NCBI RefSeq assembly: GCF_006345805.1
Contig: NC_043013.1
Span: 55,800,001 to 55,864,000 of the forward strand
Length of the DNA: 64,000 bases
Direction of reading: 5' to 3'
From: Octopus sinensis
Lineage: Eukaryota
Shown: piece by piece, positions 1-55,914 of the stretch
Layout: every line of letters begins with the position of its first letter
Numbering within the stretch: the stretch's first letter is position 1
Translations under genes and position numbers: made by a program
Notes under the pieces: model-generated
What the model saw: only the letters and a program-made list of their open reading frames with translations
Told to the model about the DNA's origin: nothing
Databases searched by the model: none

Positions 1-1321
1 GCACAACAAACACCATCTGATCGTGGCCGTTCGCCAGCCTCACCTGGCACCTGTGTCGGTGGCACATAAAAACACCATCCAAAGACCCGGCGACGTAGTC
101 AGTCCACCTGTGCATACCTTCCCTCTTATGACACTTGTGAAGACCTGTTGAGGCAGAGGCAAGTGTGTGACACTTTGTGAAGACCTGTTGAGGCAGAGGC
201 AAGTGTGTGACACTTGTGGAGACCTGTTGAGGCAAGTGTGTGACACGCGTGACACTTGTGAAGACCTGTTGAGGCAAGTGAAAATCAAACCAAATCAAAA
301 TAGATGAACATCAATGGAATTTGTATCTTTGTGGTTCCAGTACCGGTGGCACACAAGAAAACCATCCGATCGTGGCCGTTCGCCAGCCACATCTGGCACC
401 TGTGTCGGTGGCACATAAAGACACCATCCGAAGTCCCGGCGACGTAGACAGTCCACCTGTGCATACCTTCCTTCTTGTGACACTTGTGAAGACCTGTTGA
501 GGCAAGTGAAAATCAAAAAAATCAAATCAAATCAAAACAAATCAAAATAGATGAACATAAATGGAATTTGTATCTTTGTGGTACCAGTGCCGGTGGCACA
601 CAAGAAAATCATCCGAACGTGGCCGTAGCCAGTACCGCATAGACTGGCCTCCGTGCTTTGGGGACGTAACAAACACCATCCGATCGTGGCCGTCCGCCAG
701 CCTCATCTGGCACCTGTGTCGGTGGCACATAAAAACACCATCCGAGCGTGGCCGTCTGCCAGCCTCGTCTGGCACCTGCCAGCCTCATCTGGCACCTGTG
801 TCGGTGGCACATAAAAACACCATCCGAGCGTGGCCGTCTGCCAGCCTCGTCTGGCACCTGTGTCGGTGGCACATAAAAACACCATCCGAGCGTGGCCGTT
901 CGCCAGCCTCGTCTGGCACCTGTGTCGGTGGCACATAAAAACACCATCCGAGCGTGGCCGTCTGCCAGCCTCGTCTGGTACCTGCCAGCCTCATCTGGCA
1001 CCTGTGTCGGTGGCACATAAAAACACCATCCGAGCGTGGCCGTCTGCCAGCCTCGTCTGGCACCTGTGTCGGTGGCACATAAAAACACCATCAGAGCGTG
1101 GCCGTTCGCCAGCCTCGTCTGGCACCTGTGTCGGTGGCACATAAAATCACCCACTACACTCTCGGAGTGGTTGGCGTTAGGAAGGGCATCCAGCTGTAGA
1201 AACACTGCCAGATCTGACTGGCCTGGTGCAGCCTTCGGGCTCCCCAGACCCCAGTTGAACCGTCCAACCCATGCTAGCATGGAAAACGGACGCTAAATGA
1301 TGATGATGATGATGATGATGA
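1..1321 (+). mobile_element. RTE-LINE-type 3' UTR/derived non-autonomous retroelement with internal ~62-bp minisatellite and (ATG)n tail
   Basis: Tandem units ggcacctgtgtcggtggcacataaaaacaccatccgagcgtggccgtctgccagcctcgtct, then the conserved tail ggagtggttggcgttaggaagggcatccagctgtagaaac...acccatgctagcatggaaaacggacgctaaa(tga)n. The upstream motif cttgtgaagacctgttgaggcaagtg resembles the end of the RTE ORF2 relic at 51565-51880. Confidence 0.7.
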
Positions 1322-15322: not shown

Positions 15323-16055
15323 TCATCATCATCATCATTATTTAACGTCCGCTTTCCATGCTAGCATGGGTTGGACGGTTCAACTGGTGTCTGGGGAGCC
15401 TGAAGGCTGCACCAGGCCAGTCAGATCTGGCAGTGTTTCTACAGCTGGATGCCCTTCCTAACACCAACCACTCCGAGAGTGTAGTGGGTGATTTTATGTG
15501 CCACCGACACAGGTGCCAGACGAGGCTGGCGAATGGCCACGCTCGGATGGTGTTTTTATGTGCCACCGACACAGGTGCCAGACAAGGCTAGCAGACGACC
15601 ACGCTCGGATGGTGTTTTTATGTGCCACCGACACAGGTGCCAGACGAGGCTGGCGAACGGCCACGCTCGGATGGTGTTTTTATGTCCCACCGACACAGGT
15701 GCCAGACAAGGCTAGCAGACGACCACGCTCGGATGGTGTTTTTTATGTGCCACCGACACAGGTGCCAGACGAGGCTGGCGAATGGCCACGCTCGGATGGT
15801 GTTTTTATGTGCCACCGACACAGGTGCCAGACAAGGCTAGCAGACGACCACGATCGGATGGTGTTTTTTATGTGCCACCGACACAGGAGCCAGATTAGGC
15901 TGGCGATCGGCCACGATTGGATGGTGATTGTTACGTGCCCACAGCATGGAGGCCAGTTGGTGCGGTACTGGCTACGGCCACGTTCGGATGGTATTCTTGT
16001 GTGCCACCGGCACTGGTACCACAAAGATACAAATTCCATTGATGTTCATCTATTT

Positions 16056-16058
<3 letters not shown>
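15320..16058 (-). mobile_element. RTE-type 3' UTR element with ~62-bp minisatellite (inverted paralog of 540-1321)
   Basis: (cat)n tail, tttaacgtccgctttccatgctagcatgggttggacgg, tandem gtgccaccgacacaggtgccagac units, ending at aattccattgatgttcatctattttga. Confidence 0.8.
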
Positions 16059-16150
<92 letters not shown>

Positions 16151-16397
16151 TATATATACATCTATCAATATATAAATATATATATATATGTATATATATA
16201 TATTATATAAAAGGGCTTAGTAAAATAAATTACTTTGCCGCATACTGAACTCATTAGAAATAGCAGCTAAAAAACTTTTTTAAAACTATTTCTAATACTT
16301 AAAGAAAACCTCTCTCATATAGTGTCTGCTCAACTCAACCCACGCAAACATGGGGGTAGAGACATTAAAAAAAAAAAAACCAAGTGCAAAGGTTATT

Positions 16398-16449
16398 TGA
16401 GAACGTACGTTTCAAGATTAGTCAACACGACATTTCTATCATCAGCTCA
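16398..16449 (-). ncRNA. Type I hammerhead ribozyme motif (inverted copy)
   Basis: Minus strand: UGAG CUGAUGA [stem II] GAAA C GUAC G UU CUCA. Confidence 0.65.
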
Positions 16450-17008
16450 GAACTCCCTGGTTTGGACCCGAAAACACTGAAAGTGGGAGCATGCCCTTTC
16501 GGCCTCCTCTCGCTTCCGAAGATCCGCTCCCAACTAACAGTGCCAACAAACCCCAAAATGCAAGCGAAGAATTTCTGCTCTCCCCTTTCCACCAGCGTGG
16601 GTTAAAATCAGCAAACACTATGCCTCCTTCGGTAAAGTCCGCGGCATTATATAGAGAGAGATGAATTTATTTTACTAAGCCCTTTTATATAATGTAATAA
16701 TTTGAATTCGCCTTAAATGGTCCCTTTGCATACTGAATACTTGGTGAAATTGATTAATTAATTAATTTTACCCTCAATTGTTGAAATTATAATTCATCTC
16801 TCTCTATATAATGCCGCGGACTTTACCGAAGGAGGCATAGTGTTTGCTGATTTTAACCCACGCTGGTGGAAAGGGGAGAGCAGAAATTCTTCGCTTGCAT
16901 TTTTGGGTTTGTTGGCACTGTTAGTTGGGAGCGGATCTTCGGAAGCGAGAGGAGGCCGAAAGGGTATGCTCCCACTTTCAGTGTTTTCGGGTCCAAACCA
17001 GGGAGTTC

Positions 17009-17060
17009 TGAGCTGATGATAGAAATGTCGTGTTGACTAATCTTGAAACGTACATTCTCA
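17009..17060 (+). ncRNA. Type I hammerhead motif, unit 1 (stem III G>A variant)
   Basis: tgag ctgatga tagaaatgtcgtgttgactaatctt gaaa cgtaca tt ctca; the G>A change breaks the C-G pair and the palindrome of stem III. Confidence 0.55.
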
Positions 17061-17565
17061 AATAACCTTTGCACTTGGTTTTTTTAATGTCTCTACCCCC
17101 ATGTTTGCGTGGGTTGAGTTGAGCAGACACTATATGAGAGAGGTTTTCTTTAAGTATTAGAAATAGTTTTAAAAAAGTTTTTTAGCTGCTATTTCTAATG
17201 AGTTCAGTATGCGGCAAAGTAATTTATTTTACTAAGCCCTTTTATATAATGTAATAATTTGAATTCGCCTTAAATGGTCCCTTTGCATACTGAATACTTG
17301 GTGAAATTGATTAATTAATTAATTTTACCCTCAATTGTTGAAATTATAATTCATCTCTCTCTATATAATGCCGCGGACTTTACCGAAGGAGGCATAGTGT
17401 TTGCTGATTTTAACCCACGCTGGTGGAAAGGGGAGAGCAGAAATTCTTCGCTTGCATTTTTGGGTTTGTTGGCACTGTTAGTTGGGAGCGGATCTTCGGA
17501 AGCGAGAGGAGGCCGAAAGGGTATGCTCCCACTTTCAGTGTTTTCGGGTCCAAACCAGGGAGTTC

Positions 17566-17617
17566 TGAGCTGATGATAGAAATGTCGTGTTGACTAATCT
17601 TGAAACGTACGTTCTCA
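17566..17617 (+). ncRNA. Type I hammerhead ribozyme motif, unit 2
   Basis: tgag ctgatga … gaaa cgtacg tt ctca. Stem I is tgag/ctca, stem III is the palindrome acgtacgt, and the cleavage triplet is GUU. Confidence 0.7.
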
Positions 17618-18122
17618 AATAACCTTTGCACTTGGTTTTTTTAATGTCTCTACCCCCATGTTTGCGTGGGTTGAGTTGAGCAGACACTATATGAGAGAGG
17701 TTTTCTTTAAGTATTAGAAATAGTTTTAAAAAAGTTTTTTAGCTGCTATTTCTAATGAGTTCAGTATGCGGCAAAGTAATTTATTTTACTAAGCCCTTTT
17801 ATATAATGTAATAATTTGAATTCGCCTTAAATGGTCCCTTTGCATACTGAATACTTGGTGAAATTGATTAATTAATTAATTTTACCCTCAATTGTTGAAA
17901 TTATAATTCATCTCTCTCTATATAATGCCGCGGACTTTACCGAAGGAGGCATAGTGTTTGCTGATTTTAACCCACGCTGGTGGAAAGGGGAGAGCAGAAA
18001 TTCTTCGCTTGCATTTTTGGGTTTGTTGGCACTGTTAGTTGGGAGCGGATCTTCGGAAGCGAGAGGAGGCCGAAAGGATATGCTCCCACTTTCAGTGTTT
18101 TCGGGTCCAAACCAGGGAGTTC

Positions 18123-18174
18123 TGAGCTGATGATAGAAATGTCGTGTTGACTAATCTTGAAACGTACGTTCTCA
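18123..18174 (+). ncRNA. Type I hammerhead ribozyme motif, unit 3
   Basis: Same motif as unit 2. Confidence 0.7.
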
Positions 18175-18659
18175 AATAACCTTTGCACTGGTTTTTTAAT
18201 GTCTCTACCCCCATGTTTGCGTGGGTTGAGTTGAGCAGACACTATATGAGAGAGGTTTCTTTAAGTATTAGAAATAGTTTTAAAAAAGTTTTTTAGCTGC
18301 TATTTCTAATGAGTTCAGTATGCGGCAAAGTAATTTATTTTACTAAGCCCTTTTATATAATGTAATAATTTGAATTCGCCTTAAATGGTCCCTTTGCATA
18401 CTGAACACTTGGTGAAATTGATTAATTAATTAATTTTACCCTCAATTGTTGTATATATATATATATATTTTTATCAATATATATGTATATGTATGTATAT
18501 GTTTACATACAAACATACATATATGCATACACATATAAGTATACACACAGGCACACACACATATAACTAAAAGACTTTTCCAAGTGGTGCCATTGAGTTA
18601 GTCATGGCCTGGGCTGATAATGGCTGAAACCAATCTAAGTTATCTATATAAATATATAT

Positions 18660-19028
18660 ATAAAAATTCTATAAGTATAATTATAATTAGGTTTCAGCAA
18701 AAATTGCTTCACTGCAAACCAAAATTTAGAAATAGCAGTTAAATACTATTCTACTACCATAAGATATCTCCCAGACAGCAATACTCCCAACTCACGCAGG
18801 TAAAGAGTAAAAAATAACGAATTCATCTGGATTTGATTAACTATATACACGTTTCTGGGTGAAAGAGATGTAAAAACATGTAAAATCATATTTCTACTCA
18901 TTTACTCCCATCATCAGTATAGTATTTCAATTTTAAATTTGAGAGCACTAATAATTAACATACCGAACTACTTGGTAAAATTATTAATTATTAATTGATT
19001 GATTAATTTTCGCCTTTATTATTATTGA
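18660..19028. mobile_element. Diverged relative of the 557-bp pLTR-like element, between (TA)n tracts
   Basis: Shares ttagaaatagcag(t/c)taaa with the inverted arm and the tacttggt(a/g)aaatt…attaatttt terminus with the forward unit; contains an HHR on the minus strand. Confidence 0.6.
18840..18923 (-). ncRNA. Type I hammerhead ribozyme motif with long stem II
   Basis: Minus: actata CUGAUGA uggg…(long insert)…ccca GAAA C GU G UA uauagu. Stem I is a perfect 6 bp and the triplet is GUA. Confidence 0.7.
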
Positions 19029-20494
19029 TAATATATATATATATGCGTGACTTGTGTCTGTGCTTTTATGAACTTCTCAAGGCTAAAGACAAAGTATTCA
19101 GCATTCTAACAAGCTATCCCTGCTAAGTTGGATGTAAAGATTGCTTTTAGGTACTGCTTCTGCTACTAATAATTACTTCCTAATAACCTTGTTGGCCCTT
19201 TGCAACATCAGTGTCTGAAAAGATATTCTGTATAACATTGCAGTAAGATTTGTTTGGAGTGTTGTCACTGGCGATTACCAGTAGAATGAAATCACAGGAT
19301 ATGGGAGTTCTGGCACGTATAACAAACGATTCTCATCTGCTAAAACTTATGTCTCAGCTTTTATGTCTCTTTACCTGTGTGAGAGGATCTCCCAAGTCTA
19401 ATAATGCTGTATTCAGAGTCTAACAAGGCATCTATGTTGAGTTGGATATAAAGATTGCCTTTTACTACTAATACTGCTTCTATCACTGATAACTAATATA
19501 TATGTATGTGTGTATGTGTGTGTATATATGCACACATGCACACACACACATACTATCTCTCTCAAACACACACACACATATATGTAGGGAAGTCAGAGAA
19601 AGAGAGGATTTTAAATGTAAAACCATTGCAAAGACAACACAGAAAGCACAAAGTGCATTGAGTATAGAATTGGTTTAACACTTGGGAGGAATTCTTGAAA
19701 AGTGTAAGCGGTCATTTCAGATATTTGTCCTTCTTCAAAAAGAAAGAAGAGGAACTTGCTGAAGAAAAGTATTATGGAATACATTAGAAAGAAAATATAT
19801 ACAAACTGATCACCTGATAATCTAACTTCACAGCAATATATACAGAACAAAATTCTACATGAAGAGAGCAGACAATTTTGGAAAGGAGTCAGAAGATTAA
19901 TATATTCCTGTGTGTTAGCACATCAAGTGAGATTTAGTTAGGTTTAACAGCAACATCTTTCACTCATATCAACAAAAACCAAATCATCAGAAAATTTCAA
20001 TCTAAAAAGCTTAACTCAACAGAAGAATTTCAATAAAGTGTTTGAATGATTTTTTTTTTTCCAATTTCTTTCTTCCACCCTTTCACACAATTCAATTTAT
20101 TCAATTACAAATAAGTATTTTTGTTCTCAAATAAACAATTTGGTAATTCTCTCTGTATCTGACCAATCTTTACCATTTTTTAAACTTTATTTTTAGTAAA
20201 TATTTTTCTAAACTATACAAGATTATTTCCGTCTTAATATTTGTCTCACTTTTGTAAGAAATATTTAATCTTGAGTAGATTAAATATTCGAACCGATTAC
20301 AAGCCTTCAGTTATAGAGGCATTGCATTAGCCAAGCTACCATCAATATTGCATTAAGGAGCCTGGTTTGTTTTATTTTGCTTAGACATTGTTGAAATATC
20401 TATTCTAAATATATTCGTATTAGTGGGGATAACAAATAAATCAATAAAAAAATATATTAAAAAGCAACAAAACTATAATATATATGTATATACA

Positions 20495-26045: not shown

Positions 26046-26554
<509 letters not shown>

Positions 26555-26625: not shown

Positions 26626-26651
26626 AGAAGGCCACCACCAACAGATGCAGG

Positions 26652-27005
26652 ATGGCCACCACAGACACCAATAGACACACCACAAAACTATTTCTACAGA
26701 ACGTAGGAGGGCTGCTGTGTGGTAACTGTAAGAGGAAAATCTCATTCCTGAGAGACCTTGTGGCATGCAATCAAGCTATATGCATGGCACTCATAGAAAC
26801 ACATCTTGGACCCAATATAAGGGATGCAGAAATACCCATACCGCAATATGCTGTCATACGCTCAGATAGAAAAGGGAGGAGCCATGGTGGAGTTGCAATG
26901 TACATCCGAGATGACCTCACGCCCCAGGTCCTGTCGTCATATTCAAACTCAGTGTGTGACACTCAAATTGTACACATAAGACAACTGAATATCGTCATTT
27001 GTTAA
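26652..27005 (+). pseudogene. LINE ORF2 apurinic-like endonuclease N-terminal fragment (CR1/Jockey-group-like)
   Basis: LQNVGGL, MALIETHL and IRSDRKGRSHGGVAMYIR match the EEP/APE motifs NVxGL, ET.L and RxDR…GGVxxYI. Truncated after ~115 aa. Confidence 0.8.
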
Positions 27006-32877: not shown

Positions 32878-33414
32878 TGCTTGCAAAGACCTGTTGAGGC
32901 AAGTGAAATCATAATCAAAGTCAAATTCGCTGACGTGGCCAATGACAGCACCACTTGACTGGCACCCGTGCCAGTGGAATGTTAAAAGCACTATCTAAGC
33001 ATGATCATTGCCCGTGCCGCTGATTGACTCCTCTGCTAGTGGCACATAAAAAACACCATTTGAGCGTGATTGTTACCAGCATAGCCTTACTGGCACTTGT
33101 GCCGGTGGCATGTGAAAAACAATATTCAAGCGAGGTCATTGCCAGTGCTGCTGGACTGGCTCCTGTGCAGGTGGCACATAAAATACACCATTTGAGCGTG
33201 GCCATCACTAATACCGCCTGACTGACCCTCATGCCAGTGGCACGTTAAAGCACCCATACACTCTTGGAGTGGTTGGCGTTGGGAAGGGCATCCAGCTGTA
33301 GAAACTCTACCAGAGCAGATTGAAGCCTGGTGCAGCCATCTGCCTTGCCAGTCCTCAGTCAAACTGTCCAACCCATGCCAGCAAGGAAAGCAGGCATTAA
33401 ACGATGATGATGAT
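32878..33414 (+). mobile_element. RTE-type 3' UTR element with diverged ~62-bp repeats and (ATG)n tail
   Basis: gcttgcaaagacctgttgaggcaagtgaaatc…ggtggcacataaaa…gggaagggcatccagctgtagaaac…aacccatgccagc…aacgatgatgatg. Related copies lie at ~33950-34240, 43890-44228, 52945-53108 (+) and 54690-55255 (-). Confidence 0.75.
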
Positions 33415-38091: not shown

Positions 38092-38279
38092 ATAAAAATA
38101 GTTGTTCTAGCCTAATTTTGGGGTGCTGATTTCAGATACAAAACCAGTTTTCACTCATCACTGCTAGTTTTTGAGATATACATTATTATGATTTTGCAAC
38201 AATTCGCATAACGATGTATATGATCAATTCTTATTTTGTTTTCCCTATTTTTGTGATGTATATGATACATATCTCTAAA

Positions 38280-39948
38280 ATGGCTTCAGGCACTTCAAAA
38301 CACCGAGGATGCCTCAGCAAGGCAAATTCATTCTGCTACGTGTGTGGAGATTTCATGACAGTTGCACAGCGCCAAACAATTACTTCCCTCCTGAGAACTG
38401 CTTACTTTCATCATTTTGATTGTAAAATTGGAGTCCAGCACAAATCCTGGGCCCCACACATCTGTTGTAAATTCTGCTACAATGGACTAACTGCATGGTT
38501 TAATGGCAAGAAAGCAGCCTTCAACTTCGCTGTCCCAATGGTCTGGAGAGAGCCATGAAGCCATGCAGATGATTTTTGTTTAAGAAATATAACAGGTTTC
38601 AATGCTTCTTCTAGAAAAAAAGATCAAATACCCCAACCTTCCCTCGGCTAGGAGACCTGTTCCCCACTCAGATGATTTCCCTGTCCCTACATCCCCAGCA
38701 AATAAAGATCTTCTTCCTTCACCAAATGAAGAAATGCCTTTAGGGGAAGATTCTGCCAAGTTGACCTCTACTGAAGACAATGTCTCTGTTTATTCTGGGG
38801 CAAGTGGCAATGAGCCCCACTGGATCATGCAGGAAGATCTGAATAACCTTGCCGGTGATTTGTATCTATTCAAGCAGCTGTCAGAGCTCCTGGCATCCTG
38901 GCTTAAGCAGTGGAACCTGGTCAACGGAGATGTAAGGGTCACCAGTTTTAGGACTTTGCTTCATTCTTCAAAATGGAAAACAGGTTGTGCTACTGCACAA
39001 ATGTCCCTGGTTTGCTCACCTTCCTTGGTTTTCCACACAATTCCTCAGACTTGCATCTTTTCATAGACTCTTCCAAGCGAAATCTGAAGGCTGTACTCCT
39101 GCACAATGGGAATAAATACCTCAGCATTCTCATTGCCTACTCAGTCCATCTGAAGGAGTCGTATGACAATATGGAGCTCCTTTTGAAAAGCTGTTGAGTA
39201 CAACCAGTACCAGTGGAGTCTCTGCAGAGACCTCAAGGTCATTGGGTTCCTTATGGGTACGCAAGTGAGCATCACAAAATACTGTTGCTTTCTCCATCTC
39301 TGGGACAGTCGGTCTGTGTCTAAGCACTAGAAGCGGAAAGACTGGGGATGTAGGAGCACTTTCGTGCCTGGTGTCCAAGAAAATCCTCTGGTGAACATCA
39401 ACAAAGTGCTTTTGCCTCCTTTTCATATCAAGCTTGGCTTAATGAAGAATTTCATGAAGGCAATGAACAAAAATGGCATTGCCTTCCAACACTTGTGCAC
39501 TCTGTTCCCAGCTCTAAGTTCTGCTAAGCTCAAGGAGGCACCTTTGTTGGACTTCAGATCCAAGAGGTGCTGAAGGATAAGGACATTGAGGCGATTTTTA
39601 CCTTAAAGGAAGCATAGGAAGCATTTAAGTCATGGCAACACACGGGCACTAGATTACCAAGAGTGTACGGAGAAGTTGTTACAGTCTTATGAGGATGTGG
39701 CATGCTTCGTGTCATTCAAAATTTACTTTCTCTACATCTGTTTCAACTTCTTCCCTCGGAAGCTCAGAGAAGTGAGTGATGAGCATGGAGAAAGGTTCCA
39801 CCAAGATATTACTAAGATGGAGAGCAACTACCGAGGCAAGTGGAACCCCAGCATGATGGGGGACTTTTGGATGCTCTTGCATGACATCCCAGAGGTAAAG
39901 TACGCAAGATCGCCCAAAAAACTCACTTCTGACTGTTTGCTGTACTAG
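38280..39948 (+). pseudogene. Chapaev-type transposase pseudogene
   Basis: Motifs FCYVCG, SWAPHICC, FAVPMVWREP, LFIDSSKRNLKAVLLHNGN, DLKVIGFLMG, LLPPFHIKLGLMKNF and SDEHGERFHQDI are spread across several frames with stops and frameshifts. Confidence 0.85.
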
Positions 39949-43463: not shown

Positions 43464-44664
43464 CTAAACAGCAAAAAAAAAACAATTACTGATGAGTGCA
43501 AAGCCTTATCAAGCTGGAATTTATTAATTAAAGCTACACATGAGAGTGATAATTACAATATAACAGCATACAGTTATATTTAAAACACCTGTATACACCA
43601 GAACATAAACAAGTCTTAGTGAGCGATGAACAATGAATTCAAAGACCATAGTTGGGTCCAATGTCCTCATTCATAGCCCTGTGCTAGTTTATGAACATAT
43701 AGTCTATGAGAAGAATTTCTCTCCTGAGACAGAATCTGCAGTGATGGTCATTCTACTTTCAGCTGCACACTAACATATTTCATATAATTGCACCCATCTA
43801 TATTTTGAAGCATCATTGCTTTGTGTACTTCAGAGTAACCATCTTAATAAAGTGCATGATCTAATTTCAAACCATTATCCAACACCAGTACTGCGTCACT
43901 GGCACCCATGCTGGTGGCACGTAAAAAGCACCATTTGAGCATGGCTGATGCCAGTGCCACCTGAATGGCTGCAATGCCTGTAGAATGTAAAAAAAACACC
44001 ATTTGAGCGTGGCCGATGCCAGTGATACCTTACTGGCACTAGTGCTGGCGGCACATAAAAAGTACTCACTACACTCTTGAAGTGGTTGGCATGACGAAGG
44101 GGCATCCAGCTGTAGAAACCTTGCCAAATCAGATTGGAGCCTGGTGCAGCCCACCGGCTTACCAGTTCTCTGTCAAACTATCCAACCCATGCCAGCATGG
44201 AAAGCAGACGTTAAGCAATGATGATGATAAACATAAGTAGTAGTGATGAAAATGTAATCAAAATTGACCGATGACTTATTGTTAAAGTCTGCCTTCTAGT
44301 GATGAATAAATTTAAAAGTCAAACAACTGCAACTTTAATAATGTAGAAAGGTGTCTTCCAGATAGGTCACTAGTTGCACGAATTACCTTAAACGGTATGT
44401 GATAGCAGAAGGAAAGGCTGACCAACCAAAGGAACACAATGGATCACAAGGAAAAGGTGATTGCTGTTGTTTAGCCCCGAGTCAGCCTCATTGGACAGAC
44501 ATAGGAATCAAGTTCTTCGACTCACGACAATCCCAATATCCATTTGCTTTTTCATAACAGTGACTACACTGTCCAATATGTCCTTCATTTTTAAGATAGT
44601 AGGGTGTAATTTGAAGGAACTTTAGCTGTTATTTCTTGTTTATATACATGTGTCTTTATATGTG

Positions 44665-48262: not shown

Positions 48263-51200
48263 TACAGATAAGAATCTATCAAAGGCAAACATTTATACAA
48301 TTCAACATGTAACAAAATCCACAAACCAATGGTATTTGTGCATGTGTATATGCAAAGATATATGCCTGCCTGCATACGTATATATGTACATACATACGTA
48401 CATCAATACATACGTATGTACATACGTACGTACATACATACGTACATACATACGTACATACATACGTACATACATACATGCATACATACATACATACATA
48501 ACTATGGACAGTCACTTCGAAACCTTTAACGTTTATATGATGATACAAATTTATATTTCTTCCAGTAATAATTGTTATCCTTGGTTTTGTGATCAAATGC
48601 CTAATTGACAGTCTAGATAAGCTTGGAATTTTTGAAAAAGAAATCAACAAACTGACTCACACACATTACAAATACAGTCTGTAAGGCCTCCACATCACTG
48701 TAGCTTCTTGTGTTTGTCTCCTCAGGATTATCAGTATAAATGTGCAAAACTTTTCTCAAGTTTAAAAGGTGATTTTTTTGTTACCTACATTCCAATGATG
48801 AAACTTTGTATATTTGTTAGAGACCAGCTCCTTTCTCAGAGGAAGAATTTCCATAATTAGAAACAGAAGAGAACCTGCATACACATACATACATACATAC
48901 ATACATACACTCACATGCATACACACATACATACATACATAGACATGCATATACTTGTACATACATAGGTAAGTACATATTTTCATACATATGGTCATGC
49001 ATATACACATATATACATCCATATATGTGTCTCTGTGCTGTTAACAAATTTCAATAACAAATCTGATTTTAAATACTGGACTGGCTTTCATTTTGTAACT
49101 TTAGACTGTTTAATATTCATAGAGGAAAGATTTTATTATGTGTTCTGATCATTTTACTTATGTAACAAATATCTAAACATATGAAGATAAATTTACAAGT
49201 GGAAACCAAGATGCCATTAAAGATAGGAATCGTCTTAAAAATTGTAATACGAGATACAGAATATGATTAAATTCGTTAGGAAAATAATGATTGTAATGTT
49301 AGCTTGATAAAATAAATTAATAAAGGGGAGAATATGAGAAATTCTATTTTAGATCATAAACTACAATTTATAAACCATGATTTAAAATTAACATCTTAAT
49401 AGATACGAACTTAAACATATCTTGGAACTGGTAAAAGATAACATGGAACCATATATCATATCCTTCTCTTGGTTTCTTAGTCATTTCCACATGGGATTTC
49501 ATTATCACTTTGTTGAAATCTTCTGTTTGTTAGTTGACTATCTGACTAGCTGCCTTGGCAAGTGAAGCTCTCTAGAGAGTAAGTATTAAAATACTTGTGA
49601 TGATTCCACTCTCTGTCTGTTCTATTTATTCATGCAGCTATCAATGCAACTTATGCAGGCAATATTCCACACCAATTTGGTTCCATTACATGTTTGTGAC
49701 ATATCAAATATTCCTCTTAGAGACTTTACAAAAATGAAGATAAATTCCTTTTATCGATCGGGAAGATCAAAATTCATGTTGATTTAATTCCAGCATAAGG
49801 ATGACTCATCAATTATCCTTGTGTTCCGACAAAAGCAACATAGAATGGAATTATAGATTACAACAAGAAAATTGCTAAATATACATGGTATATTATTTAA
49901 ATAATATGAAATGGTCTCTCCCAAAGGCTTAAAGATGAAATGAAAGCATTTAGCCTTTACCGCACTCTGCAAAGATACTGTTTCATGTGAAGTAAAAGAA
50001 AGAAACTGTGTCTACAGTTTGCAATATGTAAGGAGGATAAGTGCAGAAATGGTGCTGGATTCTTTATCGGTTTTTATGTGCATATATATATATGTATATG
50101 TATTATATCACATACACACATGTACATGTACACACATATTCTATTGGTAAAACTCCAGAAAACAAAGAGAAATTTATGAATGCTAGGCAGAGCCACAATC
50201 AGGTTAAGAGCCAAACCAAAGGAAATTACAAAAACATGATGAAGATAAGATATAGCAGGCAGCAACATCATCAGTAAAAACTTATCTTTGTGTGTATCAA
50301 GGATTACATTGTTCATTGTGATCTTCCTTTATTTGTAATACAATAATGTGCAATTTGAAGGTGATTTAGCTGTTATTTCTAACAGTTCAGCTACTTCTCA
50401 GAGGATGTTGCTGATTATTGCATAAAAATTCCTTCAGTCAACACAGTCTCATTAAGCAGGCCTTATATAAAAACTCATTCCAGCAATAAACATGACGTTT
50501 CTTCTTATGTATCAGGGGCTACACTATGCAATGTGCCTGACATTTAAAATTATAAAAAAGTTTTGTTTTTTTTTTGTATATCCATCTTATACTGTCAAAT
50601 TATGTGTATTATATACAAATGTTATTTTTATTATTTTAAAAGATAAATAAAAATAAACTATAAAAATAGAAACCAAAAGAGATTATTGTCCTTATTAAGG
50701 AGACAAACTAGCAGACTTTTTGTTATCATGTTGGACAAAATGCTTACTGGCATTTCTTCTGGCTTTTACAGAGTTCAAATGCCACTGAGGTCAACTTTGC
50801 CTTTCATCTTTTGTGGATCAGTAAAATAAATACCAGTGATATACTGGGGCCAATACACTTGACTTTCCCCTTCCCCTCAAAATTGTTGGCCTTGTGTCCT
50901 ACTTAGAAAGAAGTATTATTACTAGATTCAGAAAATAGTTGTATGTAAGATGCATTTGGCTATCAGCTGTGTCCATTGTGTTTCTCTATGTCTTGGGCCT
51001 TTGAAGAAGAGGATGAGAAGAATTGAAGACAAACTTTCTCACTTCAGTCAAGCCCTCGTTAACATTTTAAAGTTCCACTTTGAAAGAAAAAAGTGAGGAA
51101 TGGAGTAAATGGTTAGAGTGAAAAGAATTACTCTAAGCATGTGTCTGTAGATGGAACAAAAACACTTGCGTAAAGACAAGTGACCTTGATGGTCAGTGTT

Positions 51201-53280: not shown

Positions 53281-55914
53281 TCACAACTATCATAGATATT
53301 AACTAATTTTGGGAAAATTTTATGCTCACTTTATGTGCAAAAACTAAGTTTATATACACATATAAAAAAATATATTTTAAACATCATCATTGTAATGAAA
53401 ATCAGAAATTTAAGGCTCTTCTCATATATACCATATTTGCTATCATTAGTGCAGCTTCAATAAATAAGAATTGCAGATTGGGATGAAAATCTCTTTGAAT
53501 GAAGACATTAGTGGCATTTAACTACCGCTGTTGGTGACAGAATCATGAAAACATGAATGATATATTAAAGAATTTACCATTTTAATGCCAAGTAACAGAG
53601 TTTCGTACAGCTGTGAAGGTTATAAAAATAAATGTACTTCATTGGGAAAAAATAAAATCCAAAAACTAAAAGTGAGTTTTTGATTTTGTTGTAGCTATTT
53701 TACAAATTACTGCTGCGATTTTAATGTCAACTAACAGTAGATATTGCACCAAACAGGAACTGGAGAGACTCAGCATGTTTGTTTGTTTAATTTCTATTTT
53801 TCTTTGTTAGCATGGCTTGGATGGGAATTTATTTTCGGGCAGGTTTTTGCAGCTGGATGCTCATCCTCTCAACAACCCTTCATTGTTTTCCAGTTTATGG
53901 TTTCTAAATACATACAGCAAACTGTTATAATGTCAATAAGGAATGAAGACACCAGCACCAACACTTCACTTAAATGGTGGAAACAGTGACAAGGGAAATA
54001 TCAATATTTACATCTATTTGCACACACAAAGACACTTACACACACACACGTGCGTGCACACATGCACACACATATATAAATTCAGACATAAATTTGCAAA
54101 CACATGCACACACACACATACACATACACAAGCACAAACATATACACACACACACACACATATATATATACATTCAGACATAAACTTGCAAACACATGCA
54201 CACATGCACACACGCACATATATGTGTGTGTTATAAATGATGGACTTCACACAGTTTCCCTTTACCAAATACATTTACAAATCATTGAGTGACCCAGAGC
54301 GATAGAAGTGGACACTTGGCCAAGTTGTTGTTGTTGCTGTGCAGTAGGCCCGAACCTGAAACCATGTGGTTTCAAAGCAAACTTCTCAGCTGAATCTCCA
54401 AACCTGTACCAACCATATATCATCTATAACATCATCGTTGTCGTCGCCATTTGGCATCCACCTCCCATGCTGGCATGGGTTGGACAGGAGCTGGCCAGGC
54501 AGAAGACTGCACCAAACCCTTGTGTCTGTTTTAGCATGTTTTTTTTTACAGTGGATGCCCTTCCTAAGACCAATCATCATCAGTCACTATCGTGCAGTGG
54601 TGACACTACTGATGGATGGAGGAAGAAGGAAAGGCAGAAGTGGCCCTTTCACCATTTCCCACCCACTCTGCCCAGCATATAAATATATATCATCATCATC
54701 ATTGTTGTTTAACGTCTGTTTTCAATGCTGACATGGGTTGGACGGTTTGACTGAGGTCTAGAGAGCCAGTGGCTGCACCAGGCTCCAGTCTGATCTGGCA
54801 ATGTTTCAACAGGTGGAAGCCCTTCCTAACGCTAACCACTCTGAGAGTGTAGTGGGTGCTTTTTATGTGCCACCAACACAGGAGCTAGTCAGGCGGATCT
54901 GGTATTGGTCATGTTTGGATGGTGCTTATTACATGCCACTGGCACAAGAACCAGTCAGGGGGTACTGGCATTGACCACAATCGGTTGATACTTTTTACAT
55001 GCCACTGGCACAGGAGCCAGTCAGGTAAACCTGGCATCAACCATATTTGGATGGTGCTTTTTATGTGCCACCGACACGGAAGTCAGTCAGGGGGTACTGG
55101 CCACAGCTATGATATTGGTTTTACCTGACTCAACAGGTCTTCTCAAGCATAACATATCACCGAACGCATCAGGGGTACTCTTAACCAGGCTGGACATGTA
55201 TGGCTGCGATCTCACTTTAGTTGCTGGGTCTTCTCAATCACAGCATGTCTCCAAATGTCGAAGCCAATGGCGATTTTATTGAATAAATATACTCTTTAGT
55301 ATTTCAAGAATATTTTTATGCATATATATATATGCATGTATTTTTATGTATATGTAGATATATATGTATAATATGTGATGGCATGTGGCCTAGTGGTTAG
55401 GGTGTCTCACTCGGGATTACTAAATCAAAAGTTTGATTCCCAGACTGGGCAGTGTATTTTGTTCTTCCTTAAAAATACTTCATTTCACATTGCCCCAGTC
55501 CACTCATCTGGAAATGGGTCACCCTGCAATGGACTAGTCTTCTGATCAGAGGGGAATGTTAATCTGCTGGCCAGTGGAGTGGTATCATTCAAAAGCTAAA
55601 ATGATGCAAACGATGTGACCAGTGGCATCTAATAACATCCAATAGTTTGGTTGAAACCATCATACCATCTGCTATACGAGGTTACAGTTATCCTGTTGTA
55701 CAACCAGAAACACTTGGTATGGCTATGTTGTCCAGTTCCTATTGGTGTGACTTTTGCATTTGCTAGTCACAAATTCATGCTTACCAATGTCTAATGAAAT
55801 ATTCATGCAAAAACAATAAGCCATTTAATGCTCCTATTTGTTTTGGATTCCAAAAAACTTGTTTGTTCATCTGAATGACTGTTGATAAAACAACAATTCA
55901 TTCTGCTAGATATA

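Follow-up and report, generated by a model that had tools for sequence, protein, structure and literature searches.

The array is located in a 64-kb stretch of Octopus sinensis DNA (the whole stretch that was analysed, hereafter the window), between two TA-rich microsatellites (Table 1). An inverted partial copy of 466 bp is followed by 3.2 head-to-tail units of 557 bp, and AATT at 16664–16667, common to the inverted copy and unit 1, forms the joint. Phases were numbered as position minus 17220, with unit 2 as the reference. Taken together, the inverted and direct parts overlap by 30 nt and make up four units almost exactly. Units 1–3 are more than 99% identical, and five substitutions and four homopolymer indels separate the array copies over ~2,250 bp. 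An assembly artefact was rejected as the main explanation, because the copies differ by these substitutions and head-to-tail joints occur in other runs; the copy number at the locus is as assembled. The GC content was 38%, below the retrozyme criterion of 45–50%, and the CpG observed/expected ratio was 0.81 in the array and 0.36 in the window. No target-site duplication was discernible around the array, and both flanks are (TA)n. The preliminary description of a CpG-rich array, with an inverted partial copy and ~3.2 direct units within (TA)n, was borne out by the copy alignment, the flanks and the CpG ratio.

Table 1. Positions of the array, its hammerhead motifs and the diverged neighbour in the window
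Feature	Positions	Strand	Remarks
Left (TA)n/(TACA)n target microsatellite	16058..16209	.	
Inverted partial copy	16202..16667	-	Unit phase 128 to 557, then 1 to 30
Type I hammerhead motif, inverted copy	16392..16453	-	Core from 16445
Direct unit 1, 557 bp	16664..17220	+	Hammerhead stem III broken, G to A at 17054
Damaged hammerhead motif, unit 1	17005..17066	+	
Direct unit 2, 557 bp	17221..17777	+	Hammerhead motif intact
Type I hammerhead motif, unit 2	17562..17623	+	Predicted cut after 17613
Predicted cut-to-cut monomer, 557 nt	17614..18170	+	Predicted circular fold -173.6 kcal/mol, z -7.4
Direct unit 3, 554 bp	17778..18331	+	Hammerhead motif intact
Type I hammerhead motif, unit 3	18119..18180	+	Predicted cut after 18170
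Partial unit 4, 120 bp	18332..18451	+	Phase 1–120
Right (TA)n target microsatellite	18452..18502	.	
Diverged relative	18655..19030	.	Inverted segment (minus, ~18965 to 18655) and direct 3' segment (plus, ~18959–19030)
Hammerhead motif of the diverged relative	18830..18930	-	Core from 18917

No coding frame was found in the array. Its six stop-free frames gave no Pfam match, in line with the earlier statement that reverse transcriptase (RT) and endonuclease ORFs are absent from it. The Pfam scan comprised 150 of the 256 filtered stop-free frames of the window (covering 2987–50011, array included); it yielded two weak matches below the cut-off, both outside the array, and no ORF for a telomerase-like RT with a GIY-YIG endonuclease. 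The 64-kb window contained no tRNA genes (ARAGORN). When 20-nt motifs were searched, metagenomes gave no and then two matches, viral contigs none and prokaryote genomes one; these three matches spanned only 22–23 nt and were discarded as chance.

In unit 2, the core of the type I hammerhead motif starts at 17570. Helix I is formed by 17566–69 and 17614–17 plus three distal pairs, helix II lies at 17578–17600, and the palindromic helix III at 17605–17612. The motif had been claimed for the inverted copy and every full unit, which was correct for the inverted copy and units 2 and 3; in unit 1 stem III is broken, so that only those three motifs are intact. Units 2 and 3 are thus consecutive tandem units with a complete motif, and the two cuts predicted earlier are correctly placed. 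A type I descriptor, written after the motif had been seen, matched two of 20,000 sequences obtained by dinucleotide shuffling of the unit, and none of 20,000 when a palindromic stem III was required. Across the 64 kb, it matched only the three array copies and the diverged neighbour. None of the 38 variable places listed falls within the core and stems, which comprise 57 bases (P 0.014), and the two within the motif are both in loop II.

The Rfam search suggested in the preliminary description returned no hammerhead family at E values up to 10, only hairpin and snoRNA chance matches below gathering scores. The label "minimal" was not appropriate either. Minimal hammerheads of Penelope-like elements have a long helix II with G10.1–C11.1 and little or no helix III (PMC4209133), whereas here helix III has 2 bp with a tetraloop, and the weak helix II (3+3 bp) has U-U at its base in place of the conserved G10.1–C11.1 pair. 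The architecture resembles that of axolotl HHR_Amex2, described as self-cleaving with U-U at the helix II base and a 2-bp helix III (PMC7229834). An 8-nt palindrome lies inside a 10-nt palindrome, positions 15.2–16.2 are palindromic and a dimer is allowed, with a computed duplex (dimer helix III) energy of -11.6 kcal/mol. The drawn hammerhead fold had -2.0 kcal/mol, compared with -10.5 kcal/mol for the minimum free energy of the region, which is another fold; helices I–III had a predicted probability of only 0.0–0.33 in the circular monomer. A published pipeline (bioRxiv 10.64898/2026.07.22.740005) sets the active hammerhead fold under -5 kcal/mol, and the same preprint reports that eight of nine predicted Xenopus retrozyme dimers did not cleave. 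The giant squid genome is reported to have 235 Rfam hammerhead_1 matches (PMC6962438); no dedicated paper on octopus hammerheads was found in the literature search.

The unit family was present in 20 listed sequencing runs (four organisms, 10 studies), seven of which held half the words or more. Contigs were aligned to the unit in four runs (2,769, 9,964, 498 and 109 contigs). None of the runs is recorded as RNA; one of them, X8, from another sample, was guessed to be RNA. The natural head-to-tail point was bridged by record 1 of run X1 and record 15 of run X13, three opposite-strand joints occurred elsewhere in the runs, and X1 also contained a diverged dimer contig. The family is thus very abundant, with head-to-tail and inverted joints at other loci. 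At most 3% of the aligned contig sequence, from contigs that are short, continued into unlike sequence, and none of the 24 loose ends listed (264 in total) led into identifiable coding sequence; no helper element was found among them.

The whole monomer is predicted to fold as one self-paired unit. The computed z was -7.3 for the linear and -7.4 for the circular form, and 13 control windows ranged from -4.4 to +2.0; the minus strand likewise folds well (z -5.6). One compensatory pair, 17769/17842, changes from C-G to U-A at about half of the depth in X1 and X3.

Two fixed 3' ends were recognised: the outer end of the inverted copy and the end of partial unit 4. Their distances past the predicted cut site, on its downstream side, are 194 and 284 nt, compared with roughly 85–125 nt in the Penelope-like element PAc (derived from PMC11167929). 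A ~90-nt "tail" (phase 31–120, 18362–18451) is absent from the inverted end. The diverged neighbour lies 200 bp from the array and repeats its layout of an inverted part joined to a direct part; both segments have their ends in TA-rich DNA, at positions homologous to those of the two array ends. Its motif (6-bp helix I, long helix II, short helix III) stands at the equivalent place, with helices unlike those of the array in sequence and with pairing kept. With stricter scoring, the alignment score of the inverted part was reached by one of 1,000 shuffles and that of the direct part by none of 1,000; under permissive scores the minus part fell within the shuffles (134.5 against a mean of 120.7 and a maximum of 162.5). 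BLAST extended the neighbour to the inverted end of the array, TA included (E 6e-8). A third remnant was found at 26046–26064, and both it and the neighbour are short 3' pieces. Family depth drops after ~17904 in X1, X3, X8 and X13 and after ~17809 in X3 and X13, and in X8 there are loose ends rich in TA at 17797 and 17905. The two ends thus recur in two elements and in the depth drops, ~90 nt apart, against a known tail of 30–40 bp (30–40 nt) in Penelope-like elements. This pair of ends would represent a Penelope-like "tail" signature.

Animal non-LTR retrozymes (Cervera and de la Pena 2020, PMC7229834; Li, Clavereau and Pollet 2026, bioRxiv 10.64898/2026.07.22.740005) are described as abundant families of non-coding, low-GC repeats in tandem, in which the units carry a type I hammerhead and the monomer is highly self-paired, as found here with a predicted fold. 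The unit had been called longer than typical monomers, which holds against the 150–450 bp of PMC7229834; it is inside the 51–972 bp of the preprint. For retrozymes, the accessible parts of these two papers mention neither an inverted copy on the 5' side nor a pair of fixed ends nor an A-to-G bias on one strand, features that the array shows. Metazoan retrozymes are known to yield monomeric circular RNAs; for the array, cleavage is predicted and circles are putative. Endonuclease-bearing Penelope-like elements (Penelope/Poseidon, Neptune, Naiad) are likewise reported to have partial tandems with an inverted 5' copy and a tail at one end (PMC8557442, PMC11167929, PMC4209133), AT-rich or microsatellite targets without clear target-site duplication, and a hammerhead with a small palindromic helix III upstream of the reverse-transcription starts; unlike them, the array has no RT or GIY-YIG ORF. 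Targeting of (TA)n is typical of Naiads, which are described as lacking canonical hammerheads. Chlamys elements such as MRC1 (PMC8557442) are also non-autonomous Penelope-like derivatives inserting as multicopy head-to-tail arrays; they differ in belonging to a green alga, in being mostly without hammerheads and in their (CA)n or (C)n targets, as far as the accessible text states.

The array differs from the family majority mainly in one direction. On the ribozyme strand, all 13 near-fixed differences (at least 85% of X1 depth) have G in the array and A in the majority, and at 50% of X1 depth or more 16 of 22 are G-for-A; both counts refer to the 40 of 106 differences listed, which include 22 G>A and five T>C in X1. 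The G-for-A excess departs from a strand-symmetric G>A/C>T model (P 8e-4), and over all places at 5% or more G>A exceeded C>T with P 0.008 in X1, 0.046 in X3, 0.019 in X8 and 0.17 in X13, the last not being significant. This signal was absent from the preliminary description. The G alleles at the 13 sites make up 12% to 0.01% of X1 depth (eight at 0.2% or less), and being rare and graded they fit derived alleles. In the predicted fold, 10 of the 13 sites are paired when they carry G and eight when they carry A, against a background of 58% (the pairing table leaves out one of the 40 differences, 17498 G>T, seen in X8 only). Among the 10 paired sites, six are G-U, compared with 21 of 84 other paired G (P 0.03). 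Placing A at all 13 sites weakens the fold (-163.4 against -173.0), and four sites form G-C pairs in the window, so selection on structure may contribute. In X8, the probable RNA run, A>G at 17716 and 17722 reaches 32–36%, against less than 4% in the three other runs; both positions are within predicted A-U pairs.

We infer that A was the ancestral and G the derived state at the 13 sites, and we lean slightly towards reading these sites as ADAR A-to-I edits of an RNA intermediate that repeated cycles of reverse transcription would have fixed. RNA editing was named, without a test, as a possible source of retrozyme heterogeneity (PMC7229834, accessible part), and no paper on ADAR edits fixed in retrotransposed copies was found by title in the literature search. 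It is conceivable, if somewhat less probable, that G was ancestral and the majority acquired G-to-A through a cytidine deaminase acting on first-strand cDNA, or that selection on pairing (wobble tolerance) or a biased reverse transcriptase produced the pattern. APOBEC DNA-editing footprints are clusters of sense-strand G-to-A, a single mismatch type fixed on one strand of a genomic retroelement copy (PMC2873906), and here the fold is better with G and four of the sites are G-C pairs. ADAR sites across animals are depleted of G on the 5' side (PMC5625713), and no such depletion was seen at the 13 sites (3/13 against 33/146, with low power). If A is ancestral, the polarity is opposite to that of APOBEC, and A-to-G in the RNA sense points to ADAR acting on RNA. 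The rarity and gradation of the G alleles argue for the editing reading, as do the further A>G changes of X8 in predicted stems, and the neighbour, in a weak alignment, appears to have A at the equivalents of 17546–48 and 17669. Wobble tolerance would predict a T>C count similar to that of G>A, which was not observed in X1.

The young array is probably a non-autonomous animal non-LTR retrozyme, copied from RNA by Penelope-like enzymes into (TA)n as a ready-made multimer. The assignment made in the preliminary description was upheld and reinforced by the abundant family, the tandem and inverted joints elsewhere, the two fixed 3' ends, the (TA)n target, the second hammerhead and the self-paired monomer; the ribozyme of one copy is broken. 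The cycle suggested there, in which the RNA would cleave itself, form a 557-nt circle and be re-integrated from it, is hypothetical. A monomer or dimer inserted by Penelope-like enzymes might instead have expanded locally like a minisatellite, through slippage or unequal crossover, with no role for the ribozyme. Local DNA amplification is a route proposed and left open in the accessible text of the preprint (bioRxiv 10.64898/2026.07.22.740005), the high identity of units 1–3 agrees with it, and PAc, the one Penelope-like element studied in vitro, did not require hammerhead cleavage for insertion there (PMC11167929). This origin is nevertheless unlikely, given the tandem joints in other copies (the diverged dimer contig of X1 included) and the near-exact sum of four units with its 30-nt overlap. 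Because an inverted copy with 120 bp alone contains no direct repeat from which expansion could begin, one or more head-to-tail joints without an ORF arrived with the insertion. Still less probably, the copies are debris from the pseudo-LTRs of an autonomous Penelope-like element, truncated on the 5' side, rather than a non-autonomous family that propagates independently. The depth is greatest at the 3' end, as 5' truncation would produce, the neighbour and the 26046–26064 remnant are short 3' pieces, and the majority of minimal hammerheads in metazoans are regarded as truncated elements (PMC4209133); against this stand the 557-bp ORF-less head-to-tail joint bridged by contigs of X1 and X13, the small share of the (short) aligned contigs that continues into unlike sequence, and the monomer predicted to fold as a single unit. 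A DNA-level element (Helentron/HINE- or MITE-like, or a satellite), folding through internal inverted repeats and carrying a hammerhead by chance, would suit the missing Rfam match and the well-folding minus strand. TA-rich targets and tandem arrays are also known in such elements and satellites. We consider it very improbable, as the descriptor matched so few shuffles, the neighbour has a second motif in the same place with other stems, and a strand-specific A/G asymmetry is unexpected under DNA-only copying.

For the retrozyme copied from RNA, the following course is proposed. The ribozyme strand would be transcribed into a highly self-paired RNA; the fold was computed, and transcription is suggested by the run guessed to be RNA. 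Neighbouring hammerheads might then pair through the 10-nt palindrome and, in a step to which we give slightly less than even likelihood, cut as a dimer to release a 557-nt monomer that may circularise. By analogy with known insertions, which carry tandem and inverted copies in AT-rich or microsatellite targets without clear target-site duplication (PMC8557442, accessible part), a trans-acting Penelope-like protein would nick both strands of AT-rich DNA (inferred from PMC11167929), and reverse transcription would begin internally at two places, which in this unit are phases 30 and 120. The 3.2 direct units would come from one cDNA and the inverted copy from the other, the two being joined by 4-nt microhomology. 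ADAR edits of the RNA intermediate would, on the marginally favoured reading given above, be fixed as reverse transcription is repeated.

Mobilisation of animal retrozymes by Penelope-like enzymes has so far been argued from co-occurrence and pseudo-LTR homology. In the present family, a hammerhead multimer without an ORF displays the layout of a Penelope insertion itself, with an inversion, two fixed ends and a TA target. Leaving the editing signal aside, the family is new but ordinary and of a known kind. The strand-specific G-for-A excess makes editing computationally testable on an assembled genome and, if confirmed, would prove an RNA intermediate. A more far-reaching and rather doubtful proposal is an ADAR ratchet, in which the self-paired RNA is edited in the germline, each Penelope-driven round fixes more A-to-G, and a single circular template, already edited, gave rise to all four copies. 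Counting against such a single template, the C at 18406 corresponds to an allele that makes up 39–65% of depth in the three non-RNA runs. If the ratchet is true, the family would preserve germline editing across the genome as a fossil record, and would give direct sequence evidence that animal retrozymes spread via RNA, with Penelope enzymes starting at two internal sites ~90 nt apart.

The preliminary description had placed here an inverted copy joined to about 3.2 head-to-tail units of a 557-bp non-coding repeat, and both parts were recovered (see table). Phase was defined as position minus 17220, with unit 2 (17221–17777) as the reference. The parts share four bases (AATT) at their joint, overlap by 30 nt of unit sequence, and together total almost exactly four units. 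The array copies differ by only 5 substitutions and four homopolymer indels, and this near-identity points to a young insertion. As had been described, both array flanks are (TA)n, the array is CpG-rich (observed/expected 0.81 vs 0.36 for the window; GC 38%), and RT and endonuclease ORFs are lacking: its six stop-free frames gave no Pfam family (the scan took in 150 of 256 filtered window frames, six from the array). No target-site duplication was readable in the (TA)n flanks, and no tRNA was found in the window.

Coordinates of features in the window
Feature	Position	Strand	Remarks
Inverted copy	16202–16667	minus	phase 128 to 557, then 1 to 30
Direct part	16664–18451	plus	three units + phase 1–120 (3.2 units)
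Predicted hairpin, inverted copy with unit 1	16202–17253		~460 bp
Neighbour, older array relative	18655–19030		own hammerhead (minus, core 18917), homologous ends
Third remnant	26046–26064	minus	abuts (TA)n
Very old fragment or chance match	50365–50390		27 nt, 89%, E 0.008
GC-rich repeat	671–1151		62–68 bp
GC-rich repeat	15487–15942		62–68 bp
GC-rich repeat	32958–33224		62–68 bp
GC-rich repeat	43898–44061		62–68 bp
GC-rich repeat	54855–55101		62–68 bp
Higher-order period	15492–15942		125 bp = two repeat units
Endonuclease-like frame	26628–27005		125 aa
Broken coding frames	38175–39948

The GC-rich tandem repeats are related, and one block lies 120 bp left of the array flank. The broken coding frames, probably of a transposon protein, gave no Pfam family; the first has 79 homologues at E 1e-20 or better. 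The 125-aa frame, which we take to resemble a LINE apurinic endonuclease fragment, had no Pfam match at E 0.01.

A type I hammerhead descriptor, composed after the motif had been seen, gave four matches in the 64 kb: the inverted copy, units 2 and 3, and the neighbour (at 18917, minus strand). Shuffled sequence matched it in 2/20,000 cases for the unit and 1/20,000 for the neighbour; the remainder of the window, shuffled 40 times, gave no match. The proposed hammerhead in each copy holds for the inverted copy and units 2 and 3 and fails for unit 1, where a G to A change at 17054 breaks helix III. This sole broken hammerhead is also the one that the predicted hairpin would bury; formed from a read-through transcript, that hairpin would be a likely ADAR or Dicer substrate.

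Helix I has 4+3 bp, helix II 3+3 bp with U-U at its base, and helix III 2 bp within a 10-nt palindrome. The motif is unlike the minimal type as described in PMC4209133, given the U-U and the 2-bp helix III, and resembles the architecture of axolotl HHR_Amex2, for which PMC7229834 gives 22% cleavage as a monomer and more as a dimer. Three findings speak against activity: the motif matched none of the Rfam hammerhead models, a check suggested in the preliminary description; a single hammerhead as drawn reaches −2.0 vs an MFE of −10.5 kcal/mol for its region; and 8/9 predicted Xenopus retrozyme dimers described in bioRxiv 10.64898/2026.07.22.740005 failed to cleave. Judged from sequence, the motif appears to be conserved across the family: none of the 38 variable family places listed affects the 57 bases of the core and stems (P 0.014), and the two that do lie inside the motif are in loop II. 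In the neighbour the core is kept, and helices I and II differ from the array's in sequence with pairing retained. Its helix III is a single CpG-type change short of a palindrome.

The unit was present, whole or in part, in 20 public runs (4 coded organisms, 10 studies; none recorded as RNA), and half or more of its words were found in 7 of them. From four runs, X1, X3, X8 (presumed RNA) and X13, 2,769, 9,964, 498 and 109 contigs were placed on one unit; the family is clearly abundant, contig depth here being no copy number. Depth drops past ~17904 in all four runs and past ~17809 in X3 and X13, which supports fixed ends, short of proof because divergence reduces depth too. TA-rich loose ends of X8 lie at 17797 and 17905 (among 24 of 264 loose ends listed). 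The fold z of the monomer (17614–18170, between predicted cuts) was −7.3 linear and −7.4 circular, with 13 control windows at −4.4 to +2.0, and −5.6 for the minus strand. At the pair 17769/17842 both sides change, at about half of depth in X1 and X3. The control window 49600–50156 (z −4.4) was scored from only 12 shuffles.

The neighbour repeats the array layout, its inverted segment stopping at ~phase 30 and its direct segment at ~phase 120, both in TA-rich DNA. Under strict scoring, its homology was significant, being reached by 1 (inverted part) and 0 (direct part) of 1,000 shuffles, and it extends to the inverted end at E 6e-8, TA included; with permissive scores the minus part did not attain significance. 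The third remnant carries a 3' terminal motif near-identical to the array's, and behind it lie 380 bp, flanked on each side by (TA)n, with no further match to the unit. The 27-nt match, possibly a very old fragment, corresponds to the unit's conserved hairpin region.

PMC8557442 describes PLE (Penelope-like element) insertions as targeting microsatellites and forming partial tandems, in which the 5' copy is inverted and only one end bears a tail. For an anole element, PMC11167929 describes nicking of both strands of AT-rich DNA in vitro, reverse transcription that begins at two internal sites, the distance between them being the tail, and hammerhead cleavage that is dispensable in vitro. The array ends lie 194 and 284 nt downstream of the predicted cut, so the tail would be ~90 nt, whereas known PLEs have 30–40 nt. 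These positions suit circular and linear multimeric templates equally. The C at 18406, found only in partial unit 4, is a common family allele, which at 17852 makes up 39–65% of depth in three runs; it counts mildly against one circular template and hints at a mixed template, gene conversion or recurrent mutation.

We consider it probable that the array is a Penelope-mobilised non-autonomous retrozyme, with cleavage and circles predicted and the helper putative. The unit would be transcribed on the ribozyme strand and then reverse-transcribed into (TA)n by Penelope enzymes, starting at two internal sites. Local tandem expansion would suit the near-identical direct units; the natural head-to-tail point is bridged by two contigs, X13 record 15 and the diverged dimer X1 record 1, and at least three opposite-strand joints occur elsewhere in the family, therefore tandems and inversions exist at other loci. 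We regard such expansion as unlikely.

The array is not an autonomous PLE, and pseudo-LTR debris from one is a still less probable source. Head-to-tail non-autonomous PLE derivatives are already known (PMC8557442), and 31 recently active PLE families are given for Octopus vulgaris in PMC13282606; no helper element was found in the 150 window frames scanned or among the 24 of 264 loose contig ends listed. By its sequence, the array would work like animal non-LTR retrozymes: it has two consecutive non-coding hammerhead units, as in the published sequence definition, and its 557 bp, above the 150–450 bp of PMC7229834, lie within the 51–972 bp of bioRxiv 10.64898/2026.07.22.740005, so that the length, earlier thought atypical, is not exceptional. 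A DNA element with a hammerhead motif by chance would agree with the missing Rfam match, is set against the rarity of the motif in shuffles, and seems very improbable.

Family differences were compared in the 40 of 106 rows listed. Among these, all 13 at ≥85% of X1 depth are window G vs family A (P 8e-4 under equal per-base G>A and C>T likelihood), as are 16/22 at ≥50%; the rows are apparently ranked by share with a floor of ~31%, so further near-fixed rows are unlikely. The 13 sites also exceed 75% in X1, X3 and X13, and all four window copies have G at each. Over all places at ≥5%, G>A:C>T was 22:5 in X1 (P 0.008), 21:7 in X3 (0.046), 21:10 in X13 (0.17) and 26:8 in X8 (0.019). The non-A share at the 13 sites in X1 runs from 12% down to 0.01% (≤0.2% at 8/13); G alleles this rare and graded are as expected of derived alleles acquired stepwise. 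The A-to-G direction was taken from allele rarity and a weak outgroup.

The G/A asymmetry would arise from ADAR, an origin we favour slightly. G-U pairs account for 6/10 paired sites vs 21/84 other paired G (P 0.03), and A>G places for 19/89 in X8 vs 19/165 in X1, X3 and X13 together (P 0.03). At 17716 and 17722, both in predicted A-U pairs, A>G reaches 32–36% in X8 vs <4% in the other runs; expressed alleles could mimic editing here, since X8 is another sample. Against ADAR, the 5' G depletion described for its sites across animals (PMC5625713) is absent (3/13 vs 33/146), G-C pairing occurs at four of the 13 sites, and G gives the better fold.

Hammerheads have been counted in the giant squid genome (PMC6962438), and a literature search by title found no paper on octopus retrozymes or on retrozyme copies that carry fixed ADAR edits. 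What is distinctive here is a Penelope insertion signature on a retrozyme together with strand-biased A-to-G, the latter bearing on the editing question raised in PMC7229834.
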